Part shown: piece after piece, positions 2,071 to 64,000 of the stretch
How the letters are laid out: the number at the start of each line of letters is the position of its first letter
Position numbering within the stretch: position 1 is the stretch's first letter
DNA from: Eledone cirrhosa
Lineage: Eukaryota
Length of the DNA: 64,000 bases
NCBI GenBank assembly: GCA_964016885.1
Contig: OZ024740.1
Span: 90,148,001 to 90,212,000, forward strand
Direction: 5' to 3'
Made by a program: the position numbers and the translations under genes
The notes under the pieces: generated by a model
Told to the model about the DNA's origin: nothing
Seen by the model: the letters and a program-made list of their open reading frames with translations, nothing else
The model's database searches: none

Positions 2071-2665
<595 letters not shown>

Positions 2666-21929: not shown

Positions 21930-23092
21930 TGAGAGCTGGGCGTGCTGTGGCTAATGATGCGCAGGCATGCTCTGAGGCTGTGACATCTCCAGATATTCGG
22001 CCTAAATGGTAAACAGGTGTGGTCGCCGTTTATCTGACGGGCCTTTCCGCAGCACGTTTCTTTTACAGAGCTGCAGTCCTGGGTCAAGAAGAGGCCGAGT
22101 CTGGGTTACTGACACCAAGAATGTTGCCAGCCACTCACTGCCCTCTACCAAGTGGGCAATGCGATCAGTGGAACTTCCCTTTTGAGTTTTATAGAGGATT
22201 AGTGGTGGGAAAGTGCGATGATGCACTCGGAGAAGCTTTGGGCCTCGACAAAGTCGAACTGACCAGTCTGTACCTGAGGACTTTCGAGCCGGGGACGATG
22301 GACAATTTCCAGAAATCCCTCGCTTGACAGTGCTATCGGGGGGCACTGCCCGTTCGGGATAAACTCTACAGGCACGGAAGTGCTGTCAGACAGACATGCC
22401 CAAGATGCGCACAGAGCGATGAAACCGTTCTGCACGCACGTGTCCAAAGTCCGTGCATTACTGCCTTGTGGTGTTATGTCGAACAGCTACTGTCGCGTGT
22501 GGAACGGAACCGGCTATCGGCCGAGTCCATAGTGAAGATCGACCCGCCACTTTCTTACGTCAGGAAGAGCAGGAAATTTTCCTCTGTCCGGTGGCAATTG
22601 CGAAAGAGTTTATATGGTGGACCAGATTAAAAGGACTGAAGACAGACAATTTTCACTTCGGCCTATCCCTCATCAACTTCTTCAAGTTTCACCTGGAGAG
22701 GAAAGTAAGGGTGGAGAGATATGTCCCCCACTCCCAGTACATTTGGTAATAGGTGGATGAATGTGGCGAGAATGGCCTGTGTGAATGACCGTACTCTGAC
22801 CATGCGCTTATAGGCTAGCTAACTTGAGGAGAGGGGTGCTCTCCCTGGGTGTCCCTAGAAGCCCAGGGTGGTTCAGGATTAGTATAGTACCTGAGTCATC
22901 CCTGGTTCGTCCTCTCCCTATAGGGGAATTTATTTTGATATATTTATGCATTGTTTATTTAATATTTTTTTATCTTCATTATTAAATTAGTCTTGCCATT
23001 GTGCACTTTTACTCGCCCTTATAGTAAACTCCCACTGTCCCTGTCTTTGTATTGTGCCCCATATGTCGGCCCTTGTGGCTAATAAGTCAAAG

Positions 23093-23093
<1 letters not shown>
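21930..23093 (+). mobile_element. Tx1-like LINE T1: 5'-truncated, divergent subfamily, with (ATT)n tail at 23094-23129
   Basis: MDNFQKSLA and WWTRLKGLK..INFFKFHL are homologous to the ORF2 C-terminus at 40509-43928. Ends cccttgtggctaataag. Confidence 0.9.
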
Positions 23094-23129
<36 letters not shown>

Positions 23130-24800
23130 GGTGAAGCCACGCTTGTTATCGCCTCCTGCTTTTTTCAACGTTTTATCTCGTTTTCAACCGTTCTAAACCT
23201 TTCATTCAAGTTTTAAATGTGATAAAAGTTTAGAAGTGACCCACCTAATACAGTGGTTCACTCGTAAATAATACGGCACCCCTTTACGGGGTTTCGTATT
23301 CGTATATGTGTAAAAATATTTTTTTGAAAAAATTTCAACATGGATAACACAAGAAACAGAGAGAGCTCTGTCAGACAACACATAGAGAGGTTGACTTTAT
23401 CAGCATGTCAACAAGACAGCGTTCCAGCGGAGGTGAATATAAACGAAAATATTACAAACGAATAGATGATTGTTACAGATTTAAAAGTAACAAATATTTC
23501 TAACACAAACAACACCAACAATAACACCAACAACAACACCAACAACAACACCATCAATAACAACAGCAACAACAAAAATAACAGCGGTAAAGTCGAGAAC
23601 GACAATAATAAAAATAACAGCGATAAGGTCGAGAACGACAATAACAATGACAATAACAACCGCCACAACAACAATAATAGTAGGAACAGTATCAACAAAA
23701 TCAACAATAAGAAGAACAGCCACATTAACAGTAACAACAGTATCAACGAAAACAACAACAACACCAACAACTTTACCAAGGAAAACAACAACAATGACAC
23801 CGATACCTGTAATAGCGATCTCAGCACCACCAGTAAGACCTGTAGCGGGAGCAATAGTGGTGCTGCTGAAAAAGGGATCACTTCTTTTGCAGGTGTGGCC
23901 CAAAATATCGAGACAGTGTTAGTCACAGAGGAGGAGATGGCAGTCTCAAGGACCATGGTAACAAGAAGCGCCAATAGAGTCTCCCGAAAACCTCCACCCG
24001 ATTTTTTCAAGGACAAGCTGCTACGGACGGTGACTTACCGCACCGTAGGCAAAATCTCATATCGGGTGGAGAGAGAAACGGAGGCTCAAATCTAAAAGGA
24101 ATTGGTGTGCGTCTGGGCACGGAAAACCCACATCACTGGAGACAGAAAGTACCCCACAGTAGACGTACATTTCTCCCCTCCCCCCCCAGGAAGCAAAGTC
24201 TCACTCTTTGGAAAACCCTAAAGAGTGAGGAGATAGTCTTGGTGCCCCCCTACTGCCGGCAGAAAATTGTGAGGGTCAAAGTGACCCAGGTCCCACCCGA
24301 CATGCCCATGCCTTCGCTGCTCGCGTCTGTCCTTAGGAATCGAGAACAGGACGACCATGCTTCAAGTAGAAAAAATAGGACAAGGTTAAAAGGGTTAAAG
24401 ACAGACACTTTCCTCTTCGGGGAATCCCTAATTAACTTTTTGAAGTTTCACTTGAAGAGGAAAATCAGGGTGGAGAGGCAAGTGCTGACTTCTAGCAAGT
24501 TTGTTGAAAGGTGGGTGAATGTAGCGAGAATGGTCCGAGTGAACGGGACCGCTCTGAATATACGTCTGTAGTTTGAGAAATGGAAAAATTGAGAGAGGGC
24601 GCTTGCCCTGGTGGTGAGTGTGGCCGTGGGCTTTTGTGTGGTTTTCGCCACGAATAACCCTCGGAGGTTTCCCCTCTATTGGGGAATTTTTCATTGTTTC
24701 AATTTTCAATTTTATTGTATATATATAGATGTAATTTTTTAAATTTTTTATATAAAATATTTACACGCACAAAACCCACATCGTACCGTCCTGTACCGTC
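23130..24800 (+). mobile_element. Tx1-like LINE T2 (type B): 5'UTR and ORF1 N-half fused directly to the ORF2 C-terminus and 3'UTR (large internal deletion)
   Basis: Starts GGTGAAGCCACGC right after (ATT)n. Asn-rich ORF1 remnant. Jumps at ~24380 into TRLKGLKTDTFLFGESLINF. Confidence 0.9.
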
Positions 24801-27257
24801 AAGCACCACCGACTTATCTACTGGGTCTAGGAAAATGGCCCGTATCGCGAGATCCAAGCCTCTCCGAAATTGGACGCCGAGCCCTCCCCCCGATCCTGGA
24901 CGGCTGGGAGATGCGTATACATCGTAGCCGCCGACAATCGCTGCGAAGGCCTGTTCTTCGGAGATTCTGGTTTCACTCTTGGCCACCACATCTATGTTTA
25001 GTGACCTGAGGTCATTGAGCAGGTGACCCTGCTTCCAAGATAACCCAGGCCACGTGCATTTATCCTGCCTATTCTGAGTACGGCTATGTTGGATGAGAAA
25101 CGGGGCAAGTGAGAAAGGGTCACTTACCTTGTTCGTGTGGTGAAGGGACACTAGAACAGTCCCTTTAGCTGGTCATGGGTGATTCCAAGAGGATGTTAGT
25201 GTATATCCTCTTGGTAACCGACCCACTGAAGTCTCCAACTGCGTTGGGGAATTTTGGTTTTAAAGGTTTGTTCTGTTGAGATTTCGATGACGCTTATGTT
25301 TGTCGGGAGAGTTCTTGGTGTTGGTGGGGTGTAGTATTTTTTTTCTGTGATGTCTGTGTGCTGCTTTATGTATTGTGTGACTTCTTTTTTTTGCCATGTT
25401 TATGGCGGTGTACTTTTTGGGGGGAGGGGTGATTTTGTTGTAGTTTTCTTCTTGTTGCTGTTTGGTGTGTGTTTGCGTTGTTGGTGTTTTTGGTGATGCT
25501 GGTGGTGGTGTGGTTGTTGTCGTCAGTGGTGCTTGTGGTGGTGATGGTGGTGGTGTTGCTGCAAGTTTCCTTGCTGCCTTTACCCCTCTTTGTATGTCTT
25601 CGCTTTTGGAGGGTGAATATAAGGGTTTTTTTGTTTTTTGTTTTTTTTGTGGCAGACCGTTTGCCACTTCACTCCCGCCTCAAACTCTATGTCGGATTTT
25701 GTGGCGTCTGGGAGGGGCATGAGCTCCACAGCGGTTGGTGGTGGTATTGGGCCCTATTCGGCAATGTTGTTGCTGGTGTAGTTACTTCAAATGTAGCTAT
25801 GGGTGTTGCCGCTACTGATGATGCTGCTTTAGCTATCCGTGGCCTTGGTACGGGTGCTACGGACGTTGCCCTCCTACAGTGGTAGGGGCTTCTTCGTTTG
25901 TTGCTTGTCCTGCTCTTGGTAGCAGCGGACCAGGTATTGGAAGGAGAAGGGCCTTCTTCGCTGTCTTCCCTCTACACTTATAGGGAGTTGGAGTCCTTCC
26001 TCGATGTCTATGATATCGGGGATAGCGTCGATACATTCCTGATCAGTTTGTATAAGTATTTGCATGCCTATACCTGACCAGTTCTCTCTCCCTATTTTTT
26101 CTACTTGCAGCAAGGTCGCCCTGTACTCGAATCCAGCAAGGACAGACGCGGCCAGCCAAGTTATGGGAACGTCGGGTGGGACCTGGGTCACTTTGACCCT
26201 CACAATTTTCTGCCCGCAGTAGGAGGTCACCAAGACTATCTCCTCACTCTTTAGGGTTTCCAAGAGTGAGACTTTGCTTCATGGGGGGGTGCCGAATAGT
26301 ACGTCTACTGTGGCGTACATTCTGCCTGGGATGATGTGGGTTTTGCGTGCCCAGACGCAGTCCAAGGCCTGTTGGATGTGAGCCTCCGTGGCTCTCTCCA
26401 CTCGATGTGAGATTTTGCTTACGGTGCGGTAAGTCACCGTCCGTAGCTGCTGGCCCTTGCGACTACCATCTCCTCCTCAGTGACTAACACTGTCTCGATA
26501 TTTCGGGCCACACCTGCAAAAGAAGTGGTCCCTTTTTCAGCAGCACCACTATTGCTGCCACTACTGGTCTTACTGGTGGTGCTGAGATCGTTATTACAGA
26601 TATCGGTGACATTGTTGTTGTTTTCATTGGTACAGTTGTTGATGTTGTTGTTGTTGTTTTCGTTGATACTGTTGCTGTTGTTACTGTTATTGTGGCTGTT
26701 GTTATTATTGTTGTTTTTATTGATACTGTTCCTACTATTATTGTTTTTGTGGCGGTTGTTATTATCATTGTTATTATCGTTCTCGACTTTACCGCTGTTA
26801 TTTTTGTTGTTGCTGTTGTTATTGCTGGGGTTGTTGTTGGTGTTGTTGTTGGTGTTGTTGTTGGTGTTGTTTGTGTTAGAAATATTTCTTAATTTTAAAT
26901 CTGTAACAATCTTTTTTTCCTTTGTAATATTTTCGTTTTAATTTACCTCCGCTGGAACGCTGTCTAGTTGACATGCTGATGAAATCTCCCTCTCAATCCG
27001 TTGTCTGACAGGGCTCTCTCTCTTTCTTGTGTCATCCATGTTGACATTTTTCAAAAAAAAATATATTTACCCAAATACGAATACGAATATGAAACCACGT
27101 AAATGGGTGCGTATTATTTACTGGTGAACCCCTGTATTAGGTGGGTCACTTCTTCTAAACTTTTATGAAATTTAAAACGAATAAAAGCTTTAGAACGGTT
27201 GAAAACCAGGTAAAACGTAGAAAATAAACTGGACGCGATAAGAAGCGTGGCTTCACC
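24801..27257 (-). mobile_element. Tx1-like LINE T3 (type B): 5'UTR, ORF1 and start of APE; 3' part lost
   Basis: Inverted homolog of T2. ORF1 fragments (IVRVKVTQVPPD, LPISVEGR) and APE start SWKQGHLLNDLRSL. Confidence 0.9.
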
Positions 27258-27290
27258 AACAATAATAATAATAATAATAATGATAATAAT

Positions 27291-30200
27291 GATTTCTTTA
27301 TTAACCACAAGGGTTTACATAAAGTAGACATTAAGGACAGTACAGAACAATACAGGGCGGTACAAATGGGCATGTCTGCGTGTAGAAAAAAGAAACCGAG
27401 GATGTAATAATAGAAACATGAAACAATTCCTCAATAGGGGGGGAGACTTCCGAGGGACATTGGTGGAGAAAGCCCATTAAAAGCCACAGTGACCCTGACC
27501 ACCAGGGCAAGTTCCCTCTCCCAATGTTCCACCTTTAATTTATATACACATACTCAGAGTCGGCCCATTCACTCGGGCCATTCTTGCCTCTCTCACCCAT
27601 CTTTCAACAAAATGCTGGGAAGAGAGCACTTCCCTTTCTACCCTGATTTCCCTTTTCAAATGAAATTTGAAAAAGTTAATCAGGGCATCACCGAAGATGT
27701 AAGTGCTCGTCTTCAGCCCTTTCAAACGTGTCCACCATACTATCTCTTTCGCCATGGCCACCAGACAGATAAAAACTGCCCACCCTTCCCGGCTAAAGGA
27801 AGAGGGCGGGGCAATCCTCACGATGGCCTCAGCTGATAGCTGGATCCGTCCTACACGCGACAGCAGGTGTTCGACATAAACCCACAAGTCAGCAATGCTC
27901 GTACACTGGACGAGTGCGTGCAGGACGGTTTCGTCGACCTGCGCGCATCTCGGACATACCCGGCTGACGGCACCTCCATGCCTGTAGAGTTTATCCCGAA
28001 CTGGCAAAGATCCTCGGTAGCACTGCTAGGCCAGGGATTTCTGGAAGTTCTCTATAGGCCCCGGCCCGAAAGTTCTTCCTAAGAGATTGCCTAGTTGATT
28101 TTCTTCGACGCCTAGAGTTTCTCCAAGTACGTCATCGCTCTTTCCCTCCAATAATCCCCTATAGAACGCCAAGGTGGAGTTTCCACCGATCACATTGCCC
28201 GATTGGTCGAGGGCTGTGAGCGCCTGAAGACATTCCAGTCTCCAAGCGCTCCCTCTCGGTCTTCGCTTGACCCAGGACTGCAGCTCCGTCAAGGAGACGA
28301 GCTGGGGAAAAACGTGTCTATCAAACGGCGACCACACCTGATCACCGTCGAGGAAGAGGTGGAGATGTCGTAGCCTGAGCGCGTGTCTGCGCATCATCAG
28401 CCACGGCATGCCCAGCCCTCCACGTAGCGGGTGTTGACAGCAGATGGACCGCCTGACCATCGGAACGCGTCCCTTCCACAAAACGCGAAAGAGCAAACGC
28501 TCCAGCGCAGTCAGGCGGGGCTTAGGACAAGGTACGACGGTCAGGCGGTAGTAGATGAGGGAGGCGATATACGCGTTAGCCACCTCCGCCCGCCCTTTCA
28601 GGGATAGCTTCCTCTCCGAGAATTTCTGGGTGAGAGAAGCCACCCTGCTCGTCACCTCGTCCCAGTTTTTGTCCGTATGGAGATCCGGACCGAACCAAAC
28701 CCCGAACAATGTAACCGGTCCGTCCGTCTAGCGCCCGACGACGCTGTTGGACGGCATGGCCCTGCCTCTCCAGGTGCCGAGTTGCAGGCCCACTGACTAT
28801 TCCTGGTTGATCATTGCTCCTGTCACGGCTTCGTATTCTCTTAGTGTAGTGCCGATCGCCTCGATGTGTTTGGCGTTCGACACCACTACGCTGACATCGT
28901 CCGCATATGCTGACACGGATCTTCTTCATCCTAGTTCGCGCGGGACCCCCCTCAACGTCTCCAGTTTGTGCAGTAATGGCTCGAGAGTCAATACGTACAA
29001 GAGGGACGAGAGGGGACATCCTTGGTGTATCGAGCGCATAATGTTGAACGGTTCCAAATAGTGACCGTTCACTCTCACCACAGAGAAGATGTCGCTGTGC
29101 ATGATAGCGATCCAGCCTCTGAAGACGGGCCCAAAGCCAGCCGCCCTCAGGACTGCCGCTAGGTAACGATGGTTGACCCTATCGAAATTTTTCGACTGAT
29201 CTAAATTGATCAAGGACCCACCCGTGGCAGGTTCCCTAGCTTCCCCGTTACAATGTATCGCATGAGGTGGAGGTTGTCGTGGATGGATCTGTCAGGAATG
29301 GCGCATGTCTGCGCCTCTTCCACCAGACCACCAACGACAAGCACGAACCGCTTTGCTAGCACTTGGCCAAAATCTTGAACTCTGTGTTTAGCAGTGTTAT
29401 GGGCCTAAAAATTATCTATGTTATCCCCCTTGTTCGGATCCTTTTTCAGTAGCGCCACAGCTCCTCGGCTCACAGAGCTGGGAATTCTACTCTCTGTTGC
29501 CAGTTGCAGTAGACGTCCGCCAAGAGGCCTCCGAACAAATCTGGCATCTGTAGGTAACGTTCATAGGGCAGACCCTCCAAACCAGGCGATTTACCTCTTG
29601 TGCAGCTAGTCATTGCCTCGCGTACTTCAGCGGCTGTTATCGGCTTTTCGCAACACTCCTCCTCAGTGGCCGAGAGCCGCGGCAGTCCGTCGAGGTAGAC
29701 ACTAAAGTCCATCCCTCGATCCGGCCCGCCGCTGCTCCCGAACAACTGAGCGAAGTGTCGCTGAAAAGCTTCACACATTTGCCCGGGATCGAGTAGCATG
29801 CGCCCGTCGTGGTCCACCAAAGACCGGATCGTGGCTTTGTTTCCACGATGCGCCTCCGCCACTCGGGCGCATTGAACGGCTTTCGTCCCCTCTTGTCTGA
29901 GAGCACGCACCCTAGCTCTGACAACGCACCCTTCGTGCTTTGCATTGAAGAATTGGTCAAGGGCCAATTTCGCCGCAAGCACGTCGCTCGCGATGCCTCT
30001 GCTAAGCGCCTCGTCTAATTTTTTAACTAATTCCCCCTCTGCTCTATTTTTCTCAATTGCTAAAGCCTTACTAAACCTAATTGACTCTATTCTAATTGCT
30101 CTTTTCAGATCAAACCACCACTCTTTGTTGACGATGACTCCCGTCAACGCCCGCTTAACTAGTTCGCTAATCCGGTCTCTGTAGGCCTTGCGCGCTGGTA

Positions 30201-33174
30201 AGGACGCGTTTAGCTTCCAGTAGCCGGGTCCTCGTATATGAAGCCTATCTATGTCAAGTACACCGATCACGAATTTGTGGTCCGTGTAGCTGACTATCTT
30301 GAATTGTGGACAGCCTATGCTAGACATATCTATTTCTCTACAAAGTACTCTATCTAGATATTATCTGGATGACCCTATGAGATTTGTCCAAGTCCACATT
30401 GGCACATTCGAAAATCCAATCGGTACCTGTCAGACAGTTCAAAACGCCTGAGCAGGGTGGTGAGGCTCTTGCGCCCTCCTCCCATATCCGCTAATCCCAC
30501 ACAGTCCCAGCGTGCATCTAAGATCCCGTTCCAGTCGCCCACTAACACTAATGAGCGGTGGTTCCAAGAAAGGTCTTCAGACGCTGGAAGAAATCAGGCC
30601 GCCCTGCTCCTGTCGGGGCATAGACGGCCACTAGCCTGAAATCTTTCCCGTCTCCGCTGGTTACGTCTAGCACCACCAACTTACCGTCTGGGTCAAGGAA
30701 GATGGCTCGTATGGCGAGATCCAAACCTCTCCGAAAAAGCACAGCAACTTCTCCCCCCGATCCAGGACGGCTGGTAGATGCGTACACATCGTAGCCGCCG
30801 AAGATCAGTGCGAAGGCCCGTGCTTCGGAGATTCTGTTCTCGCTGATGGCCACTACATCTATTTTTAGTGACCTGAGGTCGTTGAGCAGGTGGCCCTGCT
30901 TCCATGACGACCCCAAGCCACGCGCATTTATGCAGCCTATTCTAAGTGAGGTCATGTTGAAATGGAGTGGAAAAGATGGGAAAGACCACTTACCTTACTT
31001 CTCGTAGAGGAAGGATTGTTTGTCCATCCTTTTCACTGCTTGTGGCCTCCTCCGGAATGATGTCCTTATAAATCCTCCTGGAGAGTGTTTGTCGGAAGTC
31101 TCCGATGTCTTTGGGGAATTTTTGTTTCAGAGTCGTGTACGTTTTCTGTGTGATGCGAGTGATTTGTATGTGTGGAGGTGCATGTGAACTTTTGGGTTGT
31201 TGTGTAGTGATTTTCTGTGATGCTGGTGTTGTGTTGCATGTAATGTAATAATTGGTTGTTGCTCAAATTTAATGATGTGTAGTGTGTATCGTTTTGGTTG
31301 TTTTGTTTTGTTTGCGTTTGTTGTGGGTTTGTTTCTGTTTCGCTTTTTGGTGACTTTTGTGGTGTTGGTGATGGTGGTTTTGGGGTTAATGATGGTGATG
31401 GTGTTGGTGTTTGTGGTGATGGGGTTGGTGATGCTGGTGTGGATGGTGTCATATCAGTCCTAACTTTTTTGTTTAATATTTTATTTGTTTCCCTCTGTAT
31501 TTTATTTTTGGAGGGGGAGGGAAGAGAATTTTTTCTTTTTTGGTTTCTTTTTTTCTTTTTTCCTGATACCGTTTCCCACTCCTCGTCGTCACAATCTGTC
31601 TCGAGTTGTGATAAGCCGGAAAGTGGAAAATCCTCCACCGGCATTGGTTTTGGTTGTGGCGTGGGGGATGATGTAGGAGCTGGTGCTAATTCTGGCGCGT
31701 TGGGTGGTGTTGGTGTTGGTTTTACTACTGTTGCTGGGGTTGTTGCTGTTACAGTTGCTGTTGTTGTTGGTTTTACAATTGTTGCTGCCAGCTCTGCTGC
31801 TGGTGGTTTTGATGGTTGAGTCACTGGGGTTTGTAGGAGAGGTGGCCCCAACCTTTTAGCCTAAGGGCAAAAAGCCCTTAGGTGGGTTCCTTCACCACAA
31901 ACGACACACCTCGGCCTTCTGCCCTCGACAATTACGGTGAGGTGGCTGCCGTCAGTGAGGTCTATTACCTCTGGGATCTCCTCAATGCTTTTTGGTCCGC
32001 TTGGATCAGGACCTCCATCCCAGATCCGGACCAGTTCTCCTGCTTTTCTTTCGCTATTTCGATTATCTTGGTGTTGGCTTGGATGCCGGTGAGGACGGCA
32101 GCTATTAGCCAGGGAATTTCGATGGCCGGTGGAACGTGGGTGACCCTGATCTTTACGAGTCACTGGCCACAATAGCTTGGGATGAGTGTGAAGTCGTCAC
32201 TTCTTAATGGGACCATGGAGTGTTCTCTAGCCTCCTGTGGTATTTCAAAGAACACGTCCAAGGTTCCATATTCTGCCCACGTCTGGTGTGGGTTTTCTTT
32301 TGCCCACGCATGTCCCAAAGATTTTTGGATTTGGGACTCGGATGCCCTGGCCACTCGACGCGATTTTATATTAATTGTCCGATAAGACACAGTGCATAGG
32401 CGCCGCTGCTCCATTTTATTAGGGTGGAGGCTGACCCTGTACCCATCTTTCTTTACCATTTTTTTGGCTTCTTCTAATTCCTCCTGAGTTACCTGAAATG
32501 CTTCGCACTGTTTTGGTACTCTGGCAAAACTCAGGGTGGTTTTCTTAATGTCATTGTTGCTGTTGTTGTTATCGTTGTTTTTGTTATTATTAATTTTAGT
32601 TTCAGTTGTGGTAGTGGTGGCGTCAGTGGTGTTCGGTGTGGAAGAGTTCATTTTGGTTGAATTCATTTCGATATCACGAGTTAATTTATTTTTTTCTTTT
32701 GTTTCTGTTGTCACGGTGGTGATGGGGGTGGGGGTTGTCGCGGTGGTGGCGGTGTGGGTGTTGGGGGGGGTCGCGGTAGTGGTGGCGGCTTTAACACCTG
32801 CAGTCATTGGTAATGGCGGGAAATGAATGTCTGCCTGAGACAAATTTAAAATATTGCTACTGCTTATATTTTTAGTGTTGGCAAACGTAGTACTATTTAC
32901 AATGGTTGTGTTGGTGTGAGGTGTTAGTTTGTGAGGAAGGAGTGACTCTGAGTCATCCATGATTTTTCAAAGACAAATTTTTGTTTGATAATTATAAAAG
33001 TTTAAATTTTGGGCTCAAGGCCCTAATCTTTTTGGGTGTCCTTTTCAGATAACAATGTATGTGCACTTATATACAGTTAACAATACAAATTTTCCATGAA
33101 TGGCAATTTTAAACAACTGAAAATAGCAAACCTTTGCGGAGCAGACGATGATACGATTTACTACGTAGGGCGCC
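27291..33174 (-). mobile_element. Tx1-like LINE T4 (type C 5'UTR/ORF1, type A-like ORF2), full length, frameshifted
   Basis: ORF1 remnants 30990-32960 with a CVVCGEGTHLRAFC knuckle. ORF2 remnants 27540-30955 (APE, RT QGCPLS, CPRC...H..C). (AAT)n on both sides. Confidence 0.93.
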
Positions 33175-33189
33175 AATAATATTAATAAT

Positions 33190-38353: not shown

Positions 38354-38390
38354 AACAATAATAATAATAATAATAATAAAAATAATAATA

Positions 38391-40196: not shown

Positions 40197-40199
40197 AAC

Positions 40200-40249
<50 letters not shown>

Positions 40250-52300: not shown

Positions 52301-52319
52301 TCCGTCAACCATAGCATTC
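46311..52319 (-). mobile_element. Tx1-like LINE T7 (type A), full length, several frameshifts and stops
   Basis: Collinear with T6 throughout. ORF2 broken near 49710, 49438 and 46897; ORF1 broken near 51730, 51210 and 51080. Confidence 0.95.
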
Positions 52320-52346
52320 AATAATAATAATAATAATAATAATAAT

Positions 52347-55300
52347 TGACAGTAACAAACTAGCCAATATACGAAGAAATATTGTAAGAAAAAAGTTACT
52401 AACTGATATAGAAATTGATCAGATCAAGCTATTAGCACAAAGTCAGCGAAGGGAAAATGAAACATGTGTCAGTGAAAACGAGGTAAACTGTAACACTTCG
52501 AATCCCAGGGTTGGGGCGGAATCACTGGCAACAGAAAAAATTAAAGAAAGGATCGAAAAAGTGGAAGGAGTGCATGCTCAGGATGAAACTCCAAATGAAA
52601 ATAATGAGATCGTAAATGATAAAGAAATGAATGAGAATGAACTTGCCAACTTGAAGGATGAAATTATGATCGAATGGATGAAAATGAAAGAATCTGACAT
52701 GGGGCAACGAGACACCCTCCTTAAGATCCAGAACTCCAAACAGAACCAAAAGATAATACACAAGACTAACATAATTCTCAAAAACATTATCATCACAAAC
52801 AAACTAAACATTACTGATTTAAATCATCTCTATTATACATCGGCTAAAGTCACCACTCACTTATGTGGAGTGAAGATGAAAAAACAAAGGAATCCAACAA
52901 GAAATCTACTTGGCAAGAGAACATCAATCGCCAAATAAACCTTCTCCGATCTTACATAGAAATTTTAACAAACTATAAAGTAGGTGAACATGTTAAACAA
53001 ACTAAACTTAGAAAATTGAAAAAAAGTACAGTATAAAATCAACATGTGACATAGACATGCTGATAGAAATAATCAAGCAAAAAGTGTCGGCCAAAGCTGC
53101 TCGTATAAGGCGCTTTGAAAAACGTCCTAGATTCTATAAGGACAATAATATGTTCAAAAACAACCAAAGAAACTTCTACAGAAAAATTGGTAAGTCAACA
53201 ATAACTGCTAAATCAATACCACCCAAGGAGGAAGTGCAAAAATTCTGGGAAAAGATCTGGGCCGAAGAAAAAGTTCATAACATACATGCCCCATGGATAG
53301 ACAGACAAATGAAAGATACAGTTCACCTTGAGGAACAAACCTGGGAAAATATTACAGTTGAACAGTTGCGCTTGGCTCTAAGAAAAACCAGCAAATGGAA
53401 ATCCCCAGGAAAAGACAAAATACAAAACTTTTGGATAAATGCCTTCACAGAGTCTCATGAGCTGTTAGCCCAACTTTACAATGAAATAGTTAAGGAGCCA
53501 GAAAAGATACCTTCATGGCTAGTTAACGGCATTACATTCCTGCTTCCGAAGAATGATGAGACAAACAATCCCAAAAATTACAGACCGATAACTTGCTTGA
53601 CCACAATGTATAAAATGTTAACATCAGTCCTAACTGAATACACATATGACCACCTGATAACAAATGACCTATTTCCCATTGAGCAGAAAGGGTGTAAACG
53701 AGGTTCATATGGCTGCAAGGATCAGCTTCTGATTAACAAAATGATACTGGAAAATTGTCATAATAGACACAAAAATTTATCGATTGCTTGGATAGATTAT
53801 AAAAAAGCATTCGATAGTTTGCCACACAGTTGGATTGAAAAATGTTTAGAGATTTTCAAAGTATCCCCCGTTGTCAGGAGGTTTTTGTCATTCAGTATGA
53901 AGACATGAAAAACGACACTCCTTTTGAATAGTGAAACAAAATCACTGGAAGCTGGAGAAGTTAATATTAATTGTGGAATTTTTCAGGGTGACTCTTTATC
54001 ACCGCTTTTATTCTGCATCGCACTTATACCATTAAGTACAATGCTCAATGAAACAAAACATGGATATAAAGTCTATGACAAAACCATTAATCACCTGTTC
54101 TACATGGATGACCTGAATCTATTTGCAAAAAATGATGAACAATTGCAAGGGCTATTATCCACTGTGAAGCAGTTCAGTGATGACATTAAAATAGAGTTTG
54201 GACTAGATAAATGCGCAAAGGCAACGTTTACCAGAGGAAAGCTGCTGAAGAGTTCAGACATTAATCTTGATCGGGGGAACGTGATAAGAGAACTTGATCA
54301 AGAAAAAACTTACAAATATCTAGGTGTTTGTGAAGGAGACGGCATCAAGCACTCGACAATGAGGGAATGGATAAGGAAGGAATGTTACCGCAGAGTAAGA
54401 GCAATCGGAATTGAATGCAAGGAATAGGATCGATGCCATAAACACGCTTGCCATACCAGTAGTAACCTACAGTTACAATGTCATCAACTGGTCAAGCACA
54501 GAGATCCGTAGGCTCGATACAAAAATTCGAAAATTCTTAACCATGCACAGAATGCATCACCCTAAGGCAGATATAGATAGAATATATCTCCCTAGGAAAG
54601 AAGGAGGACGTGGGTTAATCCAGTTAGACATTGCGTTGAAAACTGCGACAATTGGATTATCTACATATCTAAGGGAATCACATGATTGGAAGATCAAACT
54701 CGTTTTGAAACACGAAAGCATCAACAGATCCTATTCCTTTACAAAAGATGCACAAAGATACAGTAATGGACTACGCATTTCAGAAGTCCCATTTACTGCT
54801 GAAATGGAAAACACAGAAAAAGCAAAGCAGGTAAAAGTAACTGCAAAGAAAGAACTGCTACAGAAACTGGCTAAGAAATGGCAAGAAAAGCCTCTGTTTG
54901 GAAAATACCCAGAGCGAGCTAACAATCCTGATGTTGACAAAACTTTAACCCATCAGTGGTTGGCATCCTCTGGACTGAAATCGGACACTGAAGGACTGAT
55001 TATATCAGCACAAGATAAGTGTCTGCCAACAAAAAATTACCAAGCCAACATAATAAAAAATGGATGCAGCCCATTATGCCGTGTATGCAAAAAACAACCA
55101 GAGACCATTGACGATATAATTTCAATGTGCAGTCCTATAGCTCCAACCGAATACCTAAATAAGCATGACAGAGCTGCACAATACATACATTGGATAATGT
55201 GTAAGCATTTTGACCTGCCCCATCAAAAGAATTGGTGGGAGCATCAACCACCTCCCATACTTGAAAAAGATACCTCAATCCTGTGGAACTTTAGCATCCA

Positions 55301-55784
55301 AACAGACCGAAAAATATATGCAAATAGACCTGATATAATATTGAAGGAATTTAAAAAGAGGGTATGCCTGCTAATTGATATGTCTGTTCCAATAGACAAG
55401 AATGTATCTATAAAAACATTTGAAAAATTGAGCAAGTATAAGGACCTGGAGATAGAAATTGGAAAAATGTGGAAATTGAGAACTAAAACAATACCAGTGG
55501 TTGTAGGCGCTCTGGGAATGATACCTAAGGGGTCTAATGATTACTTATCGCAAATCCCAGGAAACCCGCGTATAGGAGAAATACAAAAGATAGTACTAAT
55601 GGGAACTGCCCATATACTAAGGAAGATTCTGTCAATATAAGTACATCACAAGTCTAAACACTAAAGATGCATGTGTGAGTGTGTATGTTCTTTCTTGAAC
55701 ATGGCGGCCTTTGTTGTCTCTTGAGGTCACTGGTTGTGACTTGGTGATAACTCGTATGAACATAAAGCAAGATAAATGCAACTG
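52347..55784 (+). mobile_element. Dong/R4-like RLE retrotransposon D2 (second family), 5'-truncated, few disruptions
   Basis: WKSPGKD, NYRPITCL, EQKGC, DYKKAFDS, GIFQGDSLSP, YMDDL, CRVC..ETIDDIISMC, NRPD..LIDMSVP..EKLSKY.DL. (TAA)n tail from 55785. Confidence 0.93.
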
Positions 55785-55815
55785 TAATAATAATAATAAT
55801 AATATTAATAATATT

Positions 55816-58800
55816 GATAAACAAGATTAATATTTAATTTTGGATCAGGAATGTTGGAGTCGAAAATGGCAAAATGACTAAACGACTACAGATTATTATT
55901 TCACCACCAATACCACCACCACTGCCACGATGAAAACTCTGGTCGAATCGACTCAAACTTCTACCCCGACTACAACACCATCACTACAGTAATACGACCA
56001 CATCACCACCACTACTAAACGACTATAGATTATTATTTCACCACCAATAACACCACCACTACCACGATGAAAACTTGGTCAAATCGACTCTAACTTATAC
56101 CCCAACTACAACACCATCACTACTGTAATACGATCACATCACCACCACCACTGCCTCAGTATCGCTACCGCTGCTATATTCTCTCCCACTGCCTCCTACT
56201 AGTTGCTGCTAGCACAGCACCACCACCACATTGTAGAATTCCTACTAAAAGAGGACACCATCACTACAGTAATACTACCACATCACCACCACCACTGCCT
56301 CAGTCTCGCTACCGCCGCTATTCTCTCCCATTGCCTCCTGCTAGTTGCTGCTAGCACAGCACCGCCACCACATTGTAGAATTCCTACTAAAAAAGAGGAA
56401 GACATCAAAATATATAGATAGACTCAAAAGGAAAAAACAAAAATCAAAATCAAAGCAGCACAGCAACAACAACAAATAAACAGACAAAAAAGAAAACGCC
56501 CAAAAAAACCGTAAAGAAAATAAGAATGGAGAGAGAAACAAACGGACGGACAGAGAAGGGAAGGGAAAAACTAAGTCAGACATTCGAACACTACATTACA
56601 ATGAAACTTATGCTTATTCATTTTTGGGGGGTTTTCTGCCTGTTTGTTTGTTTGTTTATTTGTGTTCGTCTACAGCGTGATAATCCCACACAAGAGCCAC
56701 GTGGAGCGACGCAACCACCGGAGACGGTGAATCCACAGGTGGTTATGTAACCATACATTCGCCAATCCTCGATAAGTGTGTTTAAATGTCGAACCTAAAC
56801 AGTTCGAATAACGGTGAAATTGAGACTAGAACGTCATGTGACAGACTCTCACCCAACAGGTGCTCCCTGCCTCAGCAGCAGGGACATGGCTGTCAACCAA
56901 ATACTGCTGGTGTCGGAGGAAGAAGAAGGAAAGGGACCAAAACCAACTGGACGAAAGAATTGAATAGAACTGTTATGCAATGTTACCTGAAAAGTAACCC
57001 CAAGGAGAGGGGCTATAGGAGACGGATACATGACATCTGGAACGAGATTGGTCTATTTAAATTAGATGAACAAATATTGGCCGGGCAGGCTCGGGTAATA
57101 AGAACTAATGGGTGGATAAGCGAGCTGGAACTGGAGGAACTGAGTAGAGAGATTAGCTTGGAGATGGAGGGTGGAGTATGCCAGGCAAACGAGCCAGTGG
57201 GAAATGAAGGTGAAGAGGTCGAGAGAACGGAGGAACCACCCGAAGCAAACAATGATCTGAATACTGAGATAAATAATACCTGGAACAGAGATACGGACAA
57301 CTGAGGAGATGAATGCTGACGGGCTAGGACAAGACTTGGTTGACAACCTAAATTTAGTGGTAGATGAATTGAACAATGATAGTGGGAAACCTATGAACCT
57401 AAGATTTGTAGACAGGAAAAAGTTAAAAGAAACAACAGCTAAGGTAAACAAAGTCATCCCATACCTTGAGGCGAGGAGCCTTCACCAGTGCAACAATATC
57501 CTCAAAGCAACAGCAAATACGGTTGGGAAACTACTTGGTATAAAAGCGAGGGGAAACAACACACAAGAAAGAGCAGAGCCTTGGTGGAAGAAACGACTGA
57601 GTGGTCAAATCAGGGAAATGAGAAATGACATTGGAAAGCTTGAGTCACTACTGAATGGGACGCTAAAAAACATAGACACTAAAAATAGACTGGAAATAAA
57701 GAACAAAACTAGGAGGAAAAAGATAAATATTATCATAGAGGAACTGAAGCAACGCATTGTAGCAAAGTGTGCAAAAATCAGGCGATACGAGAACAGAGTC
57801 AGTCAGTATAAACAGAACCGCATGTTCGACAACAACCAGAAGATTATGTTTGGACAGCTTGAGGGGAAAGAAAGAGGCAACGACTTGATCCCTGGGGCAG
57901 AACAAACTAAAACATTCTGGAGAGGAATATGGGAGCAGGATGTTAGACATAATGACCAGGCAGTGTGAATTGAGACAGTACAGAAGGAGATCGGTGAACA
58001 GGCACACCAACAAACTGATTTGAGTATCACAGTTGAAACCCTGAAGGGGCAGGCCAAAAAACTAACCAACTGGAAATCACCAGGCCCAGAAGGTGTGCAG
58101 GGGTATTGGATTAAAAATATAACATCCTCCACCCGAAACTGACAGCCATGTTCAATGACTGCTTGATGTCAGGTGAGGTACCAGAGTGGTTGACAAAAGG
58201 TACCATAGTTCTGGTATTGAAGGACCGAATCAAGGGTAATGATGTTACCAACTATAGACCTATCACATGTCTGTCCGTAATATGGAAAGTGTTGACAAGC
58301 ATTATGTCTGAGGAAATCTACCATCACCTCCACACAAACAACTTGTTACCGGACGAACAGAAATGATGCCGAAAGAAGTCCCGTGGTACAATGTACTAGT
58401 CTCTTATCGATAAGATGGTAATGAGGAATTGCAAGAAGAGACACACTGTTCTTGCCATGGGATGGATAGACTACAAAAAAGCATCAGACAGTTGCTGGGC
58501 AGAAGTATGAGGTCCTGGAAAACAGAGTTGACATCAACTGGAGAATCCTTGGGAAGCGTGAAGATCAAGAGAGGTATCTTCCAGGGAGATAGCCTGTCCC
58601 CTCTGTTGTTTGTCCTTGCCCTGATGCCCCTGACCAGTGTACTGCGAAAAGTGAGAGAAGGATACAGGTTGGGAAAGGGAGGGCTTACCATCAATCACCT
58701 CCTCTTCATGGACGATCTTAAACTCTTCGGGAAGAGTGAAAAGGAGTTGGATGTGCTTGTTGACACTGTCCGTATTTTCAGCAGTGATATATATCGGCAG

Positions 58801-60203
58801 TTTGGTATGAGTAGCTGTGGAGTCATTGTGATGAGGAGGGGTAGGTTGAGCAGAAGTAACGGAATCCAGATACCAACAGGTGAGATGATAAAGTAAATTG
58901 ACTCTGAGGAAGGATACAAGTATTTGGGCGTTCTGGAGGCTGATGGCATAAAAAAACAAAAAAATGAAGGAATTGTTAAGAACTGAATAGATTCGGAGAG
59001 TAAGGAGCGTATTGAAGTCACATCTGAACAGCAGAAATGCCATAAGCGCAGTAAATTCCCGAGCTGTGTCTATTATTAGGTACAGTGCGGGAATTCTGAG
59101 ATGGAATGTTGCTGAACAAAAAGAAATGGATAGGAAGACTAGGAAGCTATTGACTACCTGCAACATGTTCCACAAGAGGAGTGATGTTGATAGACTCTAC
59201 TTAAGGAGATCTGAGGGTGGAAGAGGTCTTATCAACATAGAGGACTGAAACAACCTACACAAATACGTGACTGATAGTAAGGAACCAATGCTCAGAACTG
59301 TACTGAAGGAGGGGACAATAGGCCAGGGGATGTCCAAGGAGGAAATAACATCAAGGAGAAAGAGCAGCCTTCAGCAAAAATCCTTTCATAGTACCTTCTT
59401 TGAGAACACTGAATTCACAGATCCACAGACATGGAACTGGTTGAGAAGAGGAGACCTTAAAAAGGCTACAGAAGGAATGCTAATGGCTGCACAGGAGCAG
59501 GCCCTCAAAACAAAGTGGTTGAAACACCATATTTACAAGGAGGAGGCTAGCACACTATACAGGATCTGTGGAGAGAGAGAGGAGACTGTGGCTCACATTG
59601 TATCCGACTGTAAACACCTAGCCCAGACCCACTATAAGGGCTGGAGACATGATGTGATGGGCATGGTGATCCACTGGCACCTGTGCAAAGTAAACAATTT
59701 ACCACATTCTGAGAAATGGTATGAGCATAAGCCAGAGGCGGTGATAGAGAACAATCAGGTGAAGGTGCTGTGGGATTTTAGAATACAGACGGACAAGAAA
59801 CTGGAACACAATAGACCTGACCTGGTGGTTGTGGACAAAGAAAAAAGATCCTGTCTGATTGTGGATGTGGCCTGCCCATTCGACACGAGAGTGCAAGAGA
59901 AGGAGAGGGAGAAAATTAACCGATACCAGGACTTAAAGTGGGAGATAAAAAGGATTTGGAACTGCCATGAAGTCAAAGTGATCCCGATTGTCATAGGCGC
60001 ACTGAGGACTATCTCCAAAAGTTTCCAGGGATGGTTAAAGATAATCGGCCCCTTCACGCTTTTTGGAACGCTTCAAAAGGCATGCTTGCTGGGAACAGCA
60101 AGAACCTTCCGATACGTCCTGAATATCTGAGGCTGCAGGTAGTGGCTTGATATTCATTCCAACGGACTTTCCAGTTAACTAACATCAATGACTGAGACTC
60201 AAG

Positions 60204-60204
<1 letters not shown>
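55816..60204 (+). mobile_element. Dong/R4-like RLE retrotransposon D3, near full length (same family as D1), decayed ORF 56786-60130
   Basis: N-terminal WTKELNRTVMQCY..RGYRRR, EPWWKKRL, RT motifs, zinc knuckle and PD..D..K RLE. 3'UTR almost identical to D1. (AAT)n tail at 60205-60237. The 5' boundary is uncertain. Confidence 0.9.
55876..56400 (+). repeat. Complex tandem repeat (overlapping ~140-bp units, CAC/CTA-rich) upstream of the D3 ORF
   Basis: actaaacgacta.agattattatttcaccaccaata occurs twice; caccatcactac.gtaatac occurs three times. Confidence 0.8.
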
Positions 60205-60237
<33 letters not shown>

Positions 60238-60238
<1 letters not shown>

Positions 60239-60843
60239 TTTTCTATATTAACCACAAGGGTTTACATAAAGTAGACATTAAGACAGTACAGGAAAATACA
60301 GGACGGTACAAATGGGCATTTCTGCGTGTAAAAAAAAACAGAGGATGTAATAAAATAAGAAAGAAAAATTCCCCAATAGGGGGGGGGGGGACTTCCGAGG
60401 GACATTTGTGGAGAGCCCATTAAAAGACCACAGTGACCCTGACCACCACGGCAAGTGCCCTCTCCCAGTTGTCCACCTTTAATTTACAGACACATACTCA
60501 GAGTAGGCCCATTCACTCGTGCCATACTTGCTTCTCTCACCCATCTTTCAACAAAATGCTGGGAAGAGAGCTCTTCCATCTCTACCCTGATTTTCCTTTT
60601 AAAATGAAATTTGAAAAAGTTAATCAGGGCATCACCGAAGAGTTAAGTGCTCGTCTCCAGCCCTTTCAAACGTGTCCACCAAACTATCTCTTTCGCCATG
60701 GCCACCAGACAGATAAAAACTGCCTGCCCTTCCCGGCTAAAGGAAGGGGGCGGGGCAATCCTCCCGATGGACTCAGATGATAGCCGGATCCGTCCTACAC
60801 GCGACAGCAGGTGTTCGACATAAACCCACAAGTCAGCAATGTT

Positions 60844-60846
<3 letters not shown>
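60238..60846 (-). mobile_element. Tx1-like LINE T8 (type A-like), severely 5'-truncated (~0.6 kb)
   Basis: ORF2 C-terminus and 3'UTR only, flanked by (AAT)11 and (AAT)25. Confidence 0.92.
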
Positions 60847-60921
<75 letters not shown>

Positions 60922-60923
<2 letters not shown>

Positions 60924-63900
60924 TTTCTTTATTAACCACAAGGGTTTACATAAAGTAGACATTAAGGACAGTGCAGGACAATGCAGGACGGTACAAATGG
61001 GCATTTCTGCGTGTAAAAAAAACAAAAATAGAGGATGTAACAAAAATAACAATGAAAATAACAATGAAAAATTCCCCAATAGGGGGGAGACTTCGGAGGG
61101 ACATTTGTGGAGAAAGCCCAGTAAAAAGCCACAATGACCCTGACCACCAAGGCAAGTGCCCTCTCCCAGTTTTCCACCTTTAGTTTACAGATATATACTC
61201 AGAGTCGGCCCATTCACTCGGGCCATTCTTGCTTCTCTCACCCATCTTTCAACAAAATGCTGGGAAGAGAGCACTTCCTTCTCTACTCTGATTTTCCTTT
61301 TCAAATGAAATTTGAAAAAGTCAATCAGAGCATCACCGAAGAGGTAAGTGCTCGTCTTCAGCCCTTTCAAACGTGTCCACCATACTATCTCTTTCGCCAT
61401 GGCCACCAGACAGATAAAAACTGCCTGCCCTTCCCGGCTAAAGGAGGAGGGCGGGGCAATCCTCACGATAGACTCAGATGATAGCTGGATCCGTCCTAAA
61501 CGCGACAGCAGGTGTTCGACATAAACCCACAAGTCAGCAATTTTCGGACACTGGACGAGTGCGTGCAGGACGGTTTCGTCGCCCTGCGCGCATCTCGGAC
61601 ATGCCCGGCTGACGGCACCTCCATGCCTGTAGAGTTTATCCCGAACTGGCAAGGCTCCTCGGTAGCACTGCCAGGCCAGAGATTTCTGGAAGTTGTCCAT
61701 AGGCCCTGGCCCGAAGGTTCTTCCGAAGAGATTGGCTAGTTGATTTTCGTCGACGCCTAGAGTTTCCCCAAGTACGTCGTCGCTCTTCCCCTCCACTAAT
61801 CCTCTATAGAACGCCGAGGTGGAGTTTCCACCGATCACATTGCCCGATTGGTCGAGGGCTGTGAGCGCCTGAAGACATTCCAGTCTCCAGGCGCTCCCTC
61901 TCGGTCTTCGCTTGACCCAGGACTGCAGCTCCGTCAAGGAAACGAGCTGGGGAAAAACGCGTCTAGCAAACGGCGACCACACCTGATCACCGTCGAGGAA
62001 GAGGTGGAGATGTCGTAGCCTGAGCGCGTGCCTGCGCATCATCAGCCACGGCATGCCCAGCCCTCCACGTAGCGGGTGTTGACAACAGATGGACCGCCTG
62101 ACCATCGGAGCACGTCCCTTCCACAAAAAGCGAAAGAGCAAACGCTCCAGCGCAGTCAGGCGAGGCTTAGGACAAGGTACGACGGTTAGGCGGTAGCAGA
62201 TGACAGACGCGATGTACGCGTTAGCCACCTCCGCTCGACCTTTCAGGGATAGCTTCCTCTCCGCCCATTTCTGGGTGAGAGAAGCCACCCTGCTCGTCAC
62301 CTCGTCCCAGTTTTTGTCCGTCTGGAGGTCCGGACCGAACCAGACCCCTAGCAATTTAACCGGTCCGTCCGTCCAGCGCCCGACGACGCTGTTGGACGGC
62401 ATGGACCTGCCTCTCCAGGTGCCGAGCTGCAGGCCCACTGACTTTTCCTGGTTGATCATTGCTCCTGTCACCGCTTCGTATTCTCTTAGTGTAGTGCCGA
62501 TCGCCTCGATGTGTTTGGCGTTCGACACCACTACGGTGACATCGTCCGCATATGCTGACACGGATCTTCCGCATCCTAGTTCGCGCGGGACTCCCCTCAA
62601 CGTCTCCAGTTTGTGCAGTAATGGCTCGAGAGTCAATACGTACAAGAGGGACGAGAGGGGACATCCTTGGCGGACCGAGCGCATGATGTTGAACGGTTCC
62701 GACAGGTGACCGTTCACTCTCACCACAGAGCAGATGTCGCTGTGCATGGCAGCGATCCAGCCTCTGAAGACGGGCCCAAAGCCAGCCGCCCTCAGGACTG
62801 CCGCTAGGTAACGATGGTCGACCCTATCGAAAGCTTTCGACTGATCTAAATTGATCAAGGACCCACCCGTGCCAGGTTCCCTAGCTACCCTCTCTACGAT
62901 GTATCGCATGAGGTGGAGGTTGTCGTGGATGGATCTGTCGGGAATGGCGCATGTCTGCGCCTCTCCCACCAGACCACCAACGACAAGCGCCAACCTCTTT
63001 GCTAGCACCTTGGCCAAAATCTTAAACTCTGTGTTTAGCAGAGTTATGGGCCGGAAATTGTCTATGTTATCCCCCTTGTTCGGATCCTTTCTCAGCAGTG
63101 CCACCGCTCCTCGGCTCACAGAACTGGGAATTCTCCCGTTCTGTTGCCAGTTGCAGTAGACGTCCGCCAAGAGGCCTCCGAACAAGTCTGGCATCTGTAC
63201 GTAAAGTTCATAGGGCAGACCATCCAAACCAGGCGATTTACCCCTTGTGCAGCCAGTCATTGCCTCCCGTACTTCAGCGGCTGTTATCGGCTTTTCGCAA
63301 CACCTCGCCTCAGTGGCCGAGAGCCGCGGCAGCCCGTCGAGGTAGACACTAAAGTCCATCCCTCTACCCGGCCCCCCGCTGCCCCCGAACAGCTGAGCGA
63401 AGTGTCGCTGAAAAGTTTCACACATTTGCCCGGGATCGAGTAGCATGCGCCCGTCGTGGTCCACCAAAGACCGGATCGTGGCTTTGTTGCCACGACGCGC
63501 CTCCGCCACTCGGGCCCATTGAACGGCTTTCGTCCCCTCGTGTCTGAGAGCACGCACCCTAGCTCTGACAACGCAGCCTTCGTGCTTTGCATTGAAGAAT
63601 TGGTCAAGGGCCAATTTCGCCGCAAGCACGTCGGTTGCAATGCCTTTGCTAAGCGCCTCGTCTAATTTTCTAACTAGTTCTCCCTCTGCTCTATTTTTCT
63701 CTATTGCTAAAGCCTTACTAAACCTAATCGATTCTATTCTAATCGCTCTTTTCAGAGCAAACCACCACTTGTTGTTGACGATGGCCCCCGTCAACGCCCG
63801 CTTAACTAGTTCGCTAATCCGGTCTCTGTAGGCCTTGCGCGCTGGTAAGGACGCGTTTAGCTTCCAGTAGCCGGGTCCTCGTCTATGAAGCCTATCTAAG

Positions 63901-64000
63901 TCAAGCACACAGGTCACGAATTTGTGGTCCGTGTAGCTGACTATCTTGAATTGTGGACAGCCTATGCTAGACCTATCTATTTCCCTACAAAATACTCTAT
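60922..64000 (-). mobile_element. Tx1-like LINE T9 (type A), young, extends past the window end
   Basis: Nearly identical to T6 3'UTR and ORF2. Confidence 0.95.
61185..64000 (-). CDS. ORF2p of T9 (RT and zinc finger; APE N-terminus outside the window), uninterrupted
   Basis: Open frame of at least 910 aa, differing from T6 ORF2 at only a handful of residues. Confidence 0.93.
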   Translation of the reverse strand, partial: RVFCREIDRSSIGCPQFKIVSYTDHKFVTCVLDLDRLHRRGPGYWKLNASLPARKAYRDRISELVKRALTGAIVNNKWWFALKRAIRIESIRFSKALAIEKNRAEGELVRKLDEALSKGIATDVLAAKLALDQFFNAKHEGCVVRARVRALRHEGTKAVQWARVAEARRGNKATIRSLVDHDGRMLLDPGQMCETFQRHFAQLFGGSGGPGRGMDFSVYLDGLPRLSATEARCCEKPITAAEVREAMTGCTRGKSPGLDGLPYELYVQMPDLFGGLLADVYCNWQQNGRIPSSVSRGAVALLRKDPNKGDNIDNFRPITLLNTEFKILAKVLAKRLALVVGGLVGEAQTCAIPDRSIHDNLHLMRYIVERVAREPGTGGSLINLDQSKAFDRVDHRYLAAVLRAAGFGPVFRGWIAAMHSDICSVVRVNGHLSEPFNIMRSVRQGCPLSSLLYVLTLEPLLHKLETLRGVPRELGCGRSVSAYADDVTVVVSNAKHIEAIGTTLREYEAVTGAMINQEKSVGLQLGTWRGRSMPSNSVVGRWTDGPVKLLGVWFGPDLQTDKNWDEVTSRVASLTQKWAERKLSLKGRAEVANAYIASVICYRLTVVPCPKPRLTALERLLFRFLWKGRAPMVRRSICCQHPLRGGLGMPWLMMRRHALRLRHLHLFLDGDQVWSPFARRVFPQLVSLTELQSWVKRRPRGSAWRLECLQALTALDQSGNVIGGNSTSAFYRGLVEGKSDDVLGETLGVDENQLANLFGRTFGPGPMDNFQKSLAWQCYRGALPVRDKLYRHGGAVSRACPRCAQGDETVLHALVQCPKIADLWVYVEHLLSRLGRIQLSSESIVRIAPPSSFSREGQAVFICLVAMAKEIVWWTRLKGLKTSTYLFGDALIDFFKFHLKRKIRVEKEVLSSQHFVERWVREARMARVNGPTLSIYL

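Follow-up and report, generated by a model that had tools for sequence, protein, structure and literature searches.

The subject of this work is a 64,000-nucleotide stretch of the genome of Eledone cirrhosa (3.0 Gb, 1,796 contigs), here called the window, which comprises C1:90148001-90212000 and whose own coordinates are used below unless a contig or separate locus (L) is named. From 21931 to 64000, self-comparison and scans for open reading frames (ORFs) resolve it into 12 abutting elements without long terminal repeats (non-LTR elements), nine of them L1/Tx1-like with an apurinic/apyrimidinic-type endonuclease (APE; Tx below) and three R4/Dong-like with a restriction-like endonuclease (RLE; Dong below) (Table 1). 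Ten of the eleven junctions are AAT tracts, nine perfect (6–25 units) and one, at 33175, interrupted, and window bases 1–21930 hold no AAT or ATT tract of at least four perfect units. Copies from other loci (at least 75% identity) cover 99.6–100% of each of the 12 segments, against 1.8% of the left host flank. The segments contain no match to the short interspersed element (SINE) described below, nor any tract of at least four units inside an element body; host DNA or SINEs between the elements were rejected on the strength of this coverage and the lack of a SINE match. An earlier interpretation from the letters alone (the sequence-only reading) had proposed just such an unbroken run with tracts at ten of 11 junctions, and both counts stand. 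Past the window end the chain continues, to 14 elements and 51.7 kb in all, and ends at 73625. Tract density in the array is 214/Mb (nine tracts) vs 70/Mb in 40 random stretches (Poisson P = 0.003). We consider it probable that the chain was built by separate insertions, in which an APE family and two RLE families share (AAT)n/(ATT)n in opposite orientations.

Table 1. Elements and tracts of the chain, in window coordinates.
Feature	Description	Position	Strand
E1	5'-truncated Tx1-like, older subfamily; 3' part of ORF2 and 3' untranslated region (UTR)	21931..23093	+
(ATT)12 tract	E1 tail/E2 head	23094..23129	+
E2	Tx1-like, TxB head; large internal deletion at ~24378; last ~50 nt gone	23130..24800	+
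E3	Tx1-like, TxB head; 3' part gone; tractless join to E2	24793..27260	-
(AAT)7 tract	with degenerate extension	27261..27290	+
E4	decayed full-length Tx1-like, TxC head; frameshifts and 9 stops across pieces	27291..33174	-
interrupted AAT tract	5 units, one mismatch	33175..33189	+
E5	decayed Tx1-like, TxB head; ~80% identity to E6	33190..38356	-
(AAT)7 tract		38357..38377	+
D1	DongA (R4-like RLE element), 5'-truncated	38378..40199	+
(AAT)16 tract	D1/E6 tail-to-tail	40200..40247	+
E6	full-length Tx1-like, TxA head; ORF1 and ORF2 frames open	40248..46270	-
(AAT)9 tract	followed by TGACAGTAA; repeat of 52320-52355	46271..46306	+
E7	full-length TxA; ORF2 with 1 frameshift and 3 stops	46310..52319	-
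(AAT)9 tract	E7/D2 head-to-head	52320..52346	+
D2	5'-truncated DongB (second R4-like family)	52347..55785	+
(AAT)6 tract	with degenerate extension	55786..55813	+
D3	decayed near-full-length DongA; tandem repeats in 5' UTR	55814..60204	+
(AAT)11 tract		60205..60237	+
E8	5'-truncated Tx1-like, 609 bp	60238..60846	-
(AAT)25 tract		60847..60921	+
E9	full-length TxA, ORF2 open; runs past window to 66952	60922..64000	-
(AAT)7 tract	beyond window, after E9		
D4	DongA, beyond window	66974-72384	
tract	beyond window, between D4 and D5		
D5	DongB, beyond window	72415-73625	

The genome was searched with element ends stripped of their tracts and the best 30 loci per search were scored; the window's own locus was excluded from five search sets, and the query's own locus was retained in one, that of the DongA heads. 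First of all, every one of the 87 Tx heads (three subfamilies) has at least four sense ATT units in the upstream 30 nt, a property of 1.1% of random 30-mers, and their flanks are distinct in 84 cases by script and 81 by eye. Full-length Tx copies join exactly at ATT/G in 57 of 58 cases (two subfamilies), and truncated copies vary in phase. As for Dong, 56 of 58 tails run into AAT, the remaining two having three units, and 29 of 30 DongA heads (the query's own locus counted) stand behind AAT. Second, mostly truncated DongA copies picked by their 3' ends have at least three AAT units at their 5' breaks in 32 of 38 cases (reference positions 1–4334; the six misses comprise four copies with a variant 5' UTR outside the reference, one at an ATT tract and one without a tract). 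These breaks are scattered along the element, and the upstream tract is therefore target DNA and not only a tail. Among 20 Tx copies picked by their 3' ends, 16 heads lie behind an ATT tract, three copies are truncated at one, and the last has a 7-bp duplication, ATTATCA; truncated Tx copies adjoin ATT runs in 9 of 16 cases and AAT in none (23 rows, seven dropped for further upstream homology). The candidate view that (ATT)n/(AAT)n is merely a 3' tail was rejected on these truncated copies and on the empty paralogous sites described below. Third, at 106 of 175 sampled ends another Tx or Dong lies across the tract, and 104 of these 106 neighbours follow one rule, like elements standing in tandem and Tx opposed to Dong. 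The fixed opposite orientations that the sequence-only reading had seen in the window are thus found genome-wide, and neither a majority of unique 5' flanks nor random orientation, the outcomes it had named as fatal to itself, was encountered.

The pattern is common, and the window locus is a long instance of it. The 40 random stretches (399,800 bases) contain 28 tracts with at least five units, ten of which touch Tx or Dong; Tx-like DNA covers 5.3% of these bases (sister families counted) and Dong 1.6%, and chains of the same build occur among them (L167, L177). That the locus is unique was rejected on the neighbour count, on these chains and on L106, below. Under a geometric model with a continuation rate of 0.61, about 0.15% of chains would reach at least 14 members.

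Tracts flank the inserted copies on both sides and can be seen to grow. Two-ended Tx copies have a median of 8 units at the 5' side and 13 at the 3' side (n = 55, six from this locus and its upstream neighbour). Furthermore, within a third repeat lies an (ATT)n tract, and five randomly sampled copies of this repeat have no element in it; at L106 the tract is filled by a 4,536-bp chain of DongA, SINE, DongB, SINE and DongA, with six tracts, and the repeat is intact on either side of the chain. At L013/L014/L077 two Tx copies occupy the tract (sequence compared without the middle 2.8 kb). The proposal that each insertion regenerates its target is supported by these two-sided tracts and by the L106 tract that became a chain. 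The third repeat (L141:4884-4960, L147, L164) occurs at L141 and L147 as a pair of inverted copies separated by a few kb, and may represent the termini of a DNA transposon. Another repeat, ending ACACAATAATTTC(ATT)n (L166:7938, L169:7621), is a possible extra source of ATT tracts.

A few insertions, multiplied for the most part by tandem duplication in place or by unequal crossing-over between AAT tracts, could also yield a chain of this kind. Such duplicates do exist elsewhere (L002/L003, L016-L019, L094-L096, L224-L226), E7 is closest to E6 (97.44% vs 97.40% elsewhere) with (AAT)9-TGACAGTAA as common flank, and the D1+E6 and D3+E8 junctions are 88.7% alike. However, the neighbours comprise three Tx head types and two Dong families at 79–99% identity, and the genome-wide orientation rule would be left unexplained. 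A tree built from 58 ORF2 stretches does not unite the window copies in a single clade: E4, E5, E6 and E9 each have 10–22 of 52 outside copies closer than any window mate, and a copy on another chromosome shares 99.9% identity with E9. Because the window copies are not one clade, we regard local duplication as a quite improbable origin of the chain. The nine bases that follow the 46271 tract (TGACAGTAA) match those after 52320 and are DongB sequence, so that this repeat is likely the target-site duplication made by E7; Dong duplications are unreadable because both flanks are pure repeat. As a separate observation, C2:124754300-124780140 (L016-L019, L079, L100) and L304 hold four tandem TxA copies with a common ~130-bp spacer, and similar spacer ends surround a copy on C3.

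The array might, on the other hand, have been misjoined during assembly at AAT tracts and nearly identical copies, a prospect that we rate as very remote. E6 and E9 are indeed 99.1–99.9% identical to many copies elsewhere, and the contigs of the public runs, all short and with no RNA run listed among them, nowhere span the array. Against a join, one contig of run X1 bridges the junction between host and E1 with 0 differences (a run that may come from the sample used for the assembly), most junctions pair copies that differ by 3–20%, and N bases are absent from the window and the following 50 kb; moreover, the chains at L167 and L177 and the one between intact flanks at L106 have the same build.

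Separate insertion does not mean that the chain has been left undisturbed. E1 and E2 lie on the plus strand and all remaining Tx on the minus strand, and the stretch is thus two opposite-polarity chains joined by rearrangement. The junction at 24793–24800 has no tract, E2 lacking ~50 nt of its 3' end and E3 stopping early in ORF2. Since E1/E2 are inverted relative to the rest, this junction is tractless and D5 breaks off, both chain ends are rearranged. The idea of one landing pad holds for the common microsatellite; a single pad with both host flanks it is not, the left part being inverted and both ends broken. The members differ in decay, as had been claimed, from intact ORF2 in E6 and E9 to 10–11 stops plus frameshifts in E4 and E5. 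A second chain, Dong-Dong-Tx (L140, L139, L066; about -18900 to -3330 in window coordinates), has the same AAT polarity and ends ~25 kb upstream of the main one.

The two groups of elements are distinct in their proteins. In E6, ORF2 (40512-43925, 1138 aa) has the Pfam domains Exo_endo_phos, RVT_1 and zf-RVT, that is, APE, reverse transcriptase (RT) and a C-terminal zinc knuckle, and upstream lies an open ORF1 of 648 aa (43967-45910) in which a CX2CX4HX4C knuckle is read from the sequence. Because a PDB search with ORF2 gave E = 9e-53 for LINE-1 ORF2 (residues 4–854) vs 1e-21 for R2, the protein is nearer L1 than R2-type proteins. Its APE residues N, E, Y, D-x-N and D align with the LINE-1 endonuclease, a TDH histidine being read from the sequence, and among named proteins one from Argonauta hians (74% identity) is closest to the RT. 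A single-sequence AlphaFold model of the APE domain was discarded (mean pLDDT, the predicted per-residue confidence, 36). The two-ORF arrangement with APE, RT and zinc knuckle is that of the L1 group (L1/Tx1); Tx1-clade target preference is counted in PMC4494074 from more than 20% of flanks upwards, and here all 87 heads are at (ATT)n. Homology searches and a protein atlas queried with Tx returned no named Tx1 reference, the atlas giving only generic RT/endonuclease clusters. Tx copies show at least four head types, each beginning with G directly after ATT, and L303, L310, L316 and L317 as against E4 and E6, and also L167:2700-4990 (-), illustrate near-identical ORF2 joined to differing 5' UTR/ORF1 modules.

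Dong-side ORFs contain an RVT_1 domain (Pfam). The Dong copy at L122 has a single ORF of 1130 aa with RT, a CCHC knuckle and a PD..D..EK nuclease (motifs at residues 652, 941 and 1026) and no APE; its best PDB matches are R2 proteins. The R4 clade has an N-terminal Myb-like region and lacks zinc fingers of the R2/NeSL type. In the first 200 aa of the Dong protein there is no Cys/His in zinc-finger spacing, Myb likeness there being judged by eye only. R4 elements carry an RLE. At odds with this, and with the RLE motif found here, Dong is classed as APE-type in PMC3812793. DongA and DongB share 34–51% protein identity and represent two R4-like families; among the matches returned by homologue and cluster look-ups for Dong, none bore a clade name. 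The labels Tx1 and Dong fit architecture and target, and are not taken from a tree with named references. DongA 5' UTRs contain variable tandem repeats, with units of 136–144 bp in D3 (window 55877-56407) and ~320 bp in D4 (L061:3040-4350).

Two further families bear on how the target is chosen. An abundant SINE of ~200–260 bp (L006, L148, L149, L151, L165, L177 and many other loci) has an (ATT)n tail, a Tx-like 3' end and a head judged by eye to derive from tRNA, and it lies in the same tracts, pointing the way Tx does in 19 of 20 neighbour cases. Its last 28 bases beat all shuffles when compared with the 3' ends of E1, E5 and a sister Tx family, but not with those of E6 or either Dong. Duplications of at least 8 bp flank 40 of 75 two-ended SINE copies; 31 of the 75 have complex duplications of 10–20 bp (control 9/372), and these start with ATTAT exactly in 21 cases, shifted by one base in three, with one mismatch in six and with two mismatches in one. 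The sister Tx family, with ~70% DNA identity and 60% APE-domain identity to the ATT family, ends in ATATCT in 25 of 29 copies, and its 5' junctions have ATCT repeats in 14 of 23 cases (background 0.8%) and ATTATT in none. It is represented by L153:1452-4702 and 5043-5544 (-), by L321-L340 and by L326:3152-6589 (+), whose ORF2 (1145 aa) is open; some copies have duplications of ~10–18 bp beginning at or near ATCT. The ATCT siting is in line with what a changed enzyme specificity would produce.

In target-primed reverse transcription the first nick falls in the strand complementary to the element sense, and this strand then primes on the RNA tail; L1 cuts at TTTT^AA. Because Tx and Dong are oppositely oriented, this process predicts for the Tx enzyme a nick in the AAT strand, at ...ATAAT^N (like the L1 site a T^A step, here in the repeat), with priming on an (AUU)n tail, and for Dong a nick in the ATT strand with priming on an (AAU)n tail. 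Each endonuclease would thus first nick a different strand of the microsatellite, and APE and RLE enzymes would then have converged on its opposite strands, as the sequence-only reading proposed. Placement, orientation, tracts at both ends, the empty and filled versions of one tract and the neighbours' separate origin are observed; the nicks are deduced from the model. Since target-site duplication and tail synthesis would leave a tract at both ends, one tract would be split into two, filled sites would gain targets and chains would lengthen; the tRNA-headed SINE with its Tx-like tail would enter chains in Tx orientation, and the left end of the present chain would have been inverted or deleted afterwards.

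Several observations weigh against this account. Sampling the best 30 loci over-represents young copies; the neighbour pairs at L356 and L370 break the orientation rule, and L126, L104 and L209 (a head adjoining an ORF1 body) are further exceptions. Full-length Tx copies lack a target-site duplication at L070 and L086, and those at E7 and L013 have one that is over-long; the choice of nicked strand is deduced from orientation and from the SINE duplications. The SINE tail best matches the ATCT sister (29.8 vs 16–24 for the ATT families), yet the SINE lands at ATTAT; 35 of 75 SINE copies lack a duplication, and the search for duplications (start at most 5 nt from the tail) favoured sites starting with ATT. 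Only 13 of 27 random SINE heads have upstream ATT runs and, because of this and of the ATT-biased search, what is recognised may instead be ATTAT, a short motif that the microsatellite presents in its densest array. The sister family differs in RNA tail and APE together, so that enzyme and tail are confounded.

Some of these points would be explained if site and orientation came mainly from RNA-DNA pairing, a loosely specific endonuclease nicking AT-rich DNA and insertion going to completion only at nicks with a 3' end that pairs with the element's tail; in full-length copies, the repeat at the RNA 5' end would pair as well. Target equals tail in each family (ATT for Tx and SINE, ATCT for the sister, AAT for Dong), and the exact register of full-length Tx, as opposed to the varying phase of truncated copies, together with the four informative full-length copies with an absent or over-long duplication, fits pairing, as does a SINE tail that resembles one family and a site that belongs to another. 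On the other hand, an ATT family could mobilise the SINE and tails may be read-through copies of the target, while the endonuclease is held mainly to set target choice in these clades (PMC4494074) and the microsatellite specificity of Dong and the Tx1 clade is described as lineage-specific (PMC3812793). We therefore consider pairing an unlikely, though serious, alternative to endonuclease-led separate insertion. A broader picture is unlikely and is offered tentatively: a self-amplifying niche in which an APE family, two RLE families and a SINE would split the strands of (AAT)n, each insertion doubling the target, such that a few percent of the 3-Gb genome would have turned into mixed chains and the sister's switch to (ATCT)n would have been steered by the RNA repeat ends and not by the endonuclease.

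Each ingredient of separate insertion at a shared microsatellite has a precedent. Dong elements target TAA repeats, including DongBg in the snail Biomphalaria glabrata (PMC3812793), and Dong, DongAg and DongBg (R4 clade) resemble the elements described here in that target and in a single ORF with RT, CCHC and PD..D..EK; here, however, two Dong families occupy the tract alongside an APE element and a SINE. Tx1-clade elements are known at microsatellites, with Kibi at (TC)n, Koshi at (TTC)n and crocodilian families at (TTCC)n/(TTTC)n, and SINEU, with the Tx1-Mar target, is a presumed passenger (PMC4494074), whereas the targets here are (ATT)n and, in the sister, (ATCT)n; the main text of PMC4494074, its Fig. 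3 and supplements aside, has no ATT, TAA or TTA target in the parts available. TRAS and SART of Bombyx mori are two families that insert into a single telomeric repeat, facing opposite ways, and build arrays (PMC10088271), but both are R1-clade APE elements at telomeres, whereas here APE and RLE elements form chains scattered inside chromosomes. Keno (Tx1, APE) and Utopia (RLE) evolved in parallel towards one target, the U2 snRNA genes (PMC4640811); they use the same 3' flank of a low-copy gene, in contrast to the opposite orientations and the expandable repeat, renewed at each insertion, seen here. The Dong-R4 elements of Octopus vulgaris are abundant and have been active recently, and Dong-R4 and L1-Tx1 are among the most active octopod LINEs (long interspersed elements) (PMC13282606); three octopus papers (PMC13282606, PMC9115989, PMC8967140) describe abundant, active Dong-R4/L1-Tx1 and transposon hotspots, with no target analysis in the available text. 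In the literature searched we found neither a Tx1 family specific for (ATT)n or (ATCT)n nor chains of Tx1 with Dong, although Repbase, Kojima and Fujiwara 2004 and Fig. 3 and the supplements of PMC4494074 may hold such. The combination, the target-switched sister and the visible growth from a single tract thus appear to be undescribed in that literature.

Microsatellite target choice by retrotransposons has been called poorly understood (PMC3812793). The families described here form a matched set: within one genome, sister APE families (60%-identical endonucleases, ORFs open) use (ATT)n vs (ATCT)n, and the other strand of the (ATT)n target is used by an unrelated RLE enzyme. Such a set can separate enzyme from RNA guidance; if RNA repeat ends do steer the target, changing a few tail bases would retarget an element. 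Insertion into AAT tracts is also a candidate mechanism for transposon hotspots and for the abundance of AAT tracts in octopod genomes, and a caution follows for octopod AAT microsatellite markers and assemblies, which rest on insertion sites. In the host part of the window, finally, lie Helitron-like frame fragments at 3670-4605 (+), with a PF14214 match below cut-off, and a fragment of a DDE_3 (Tc1/mariner-type) transposase at 10946-11527 (-).

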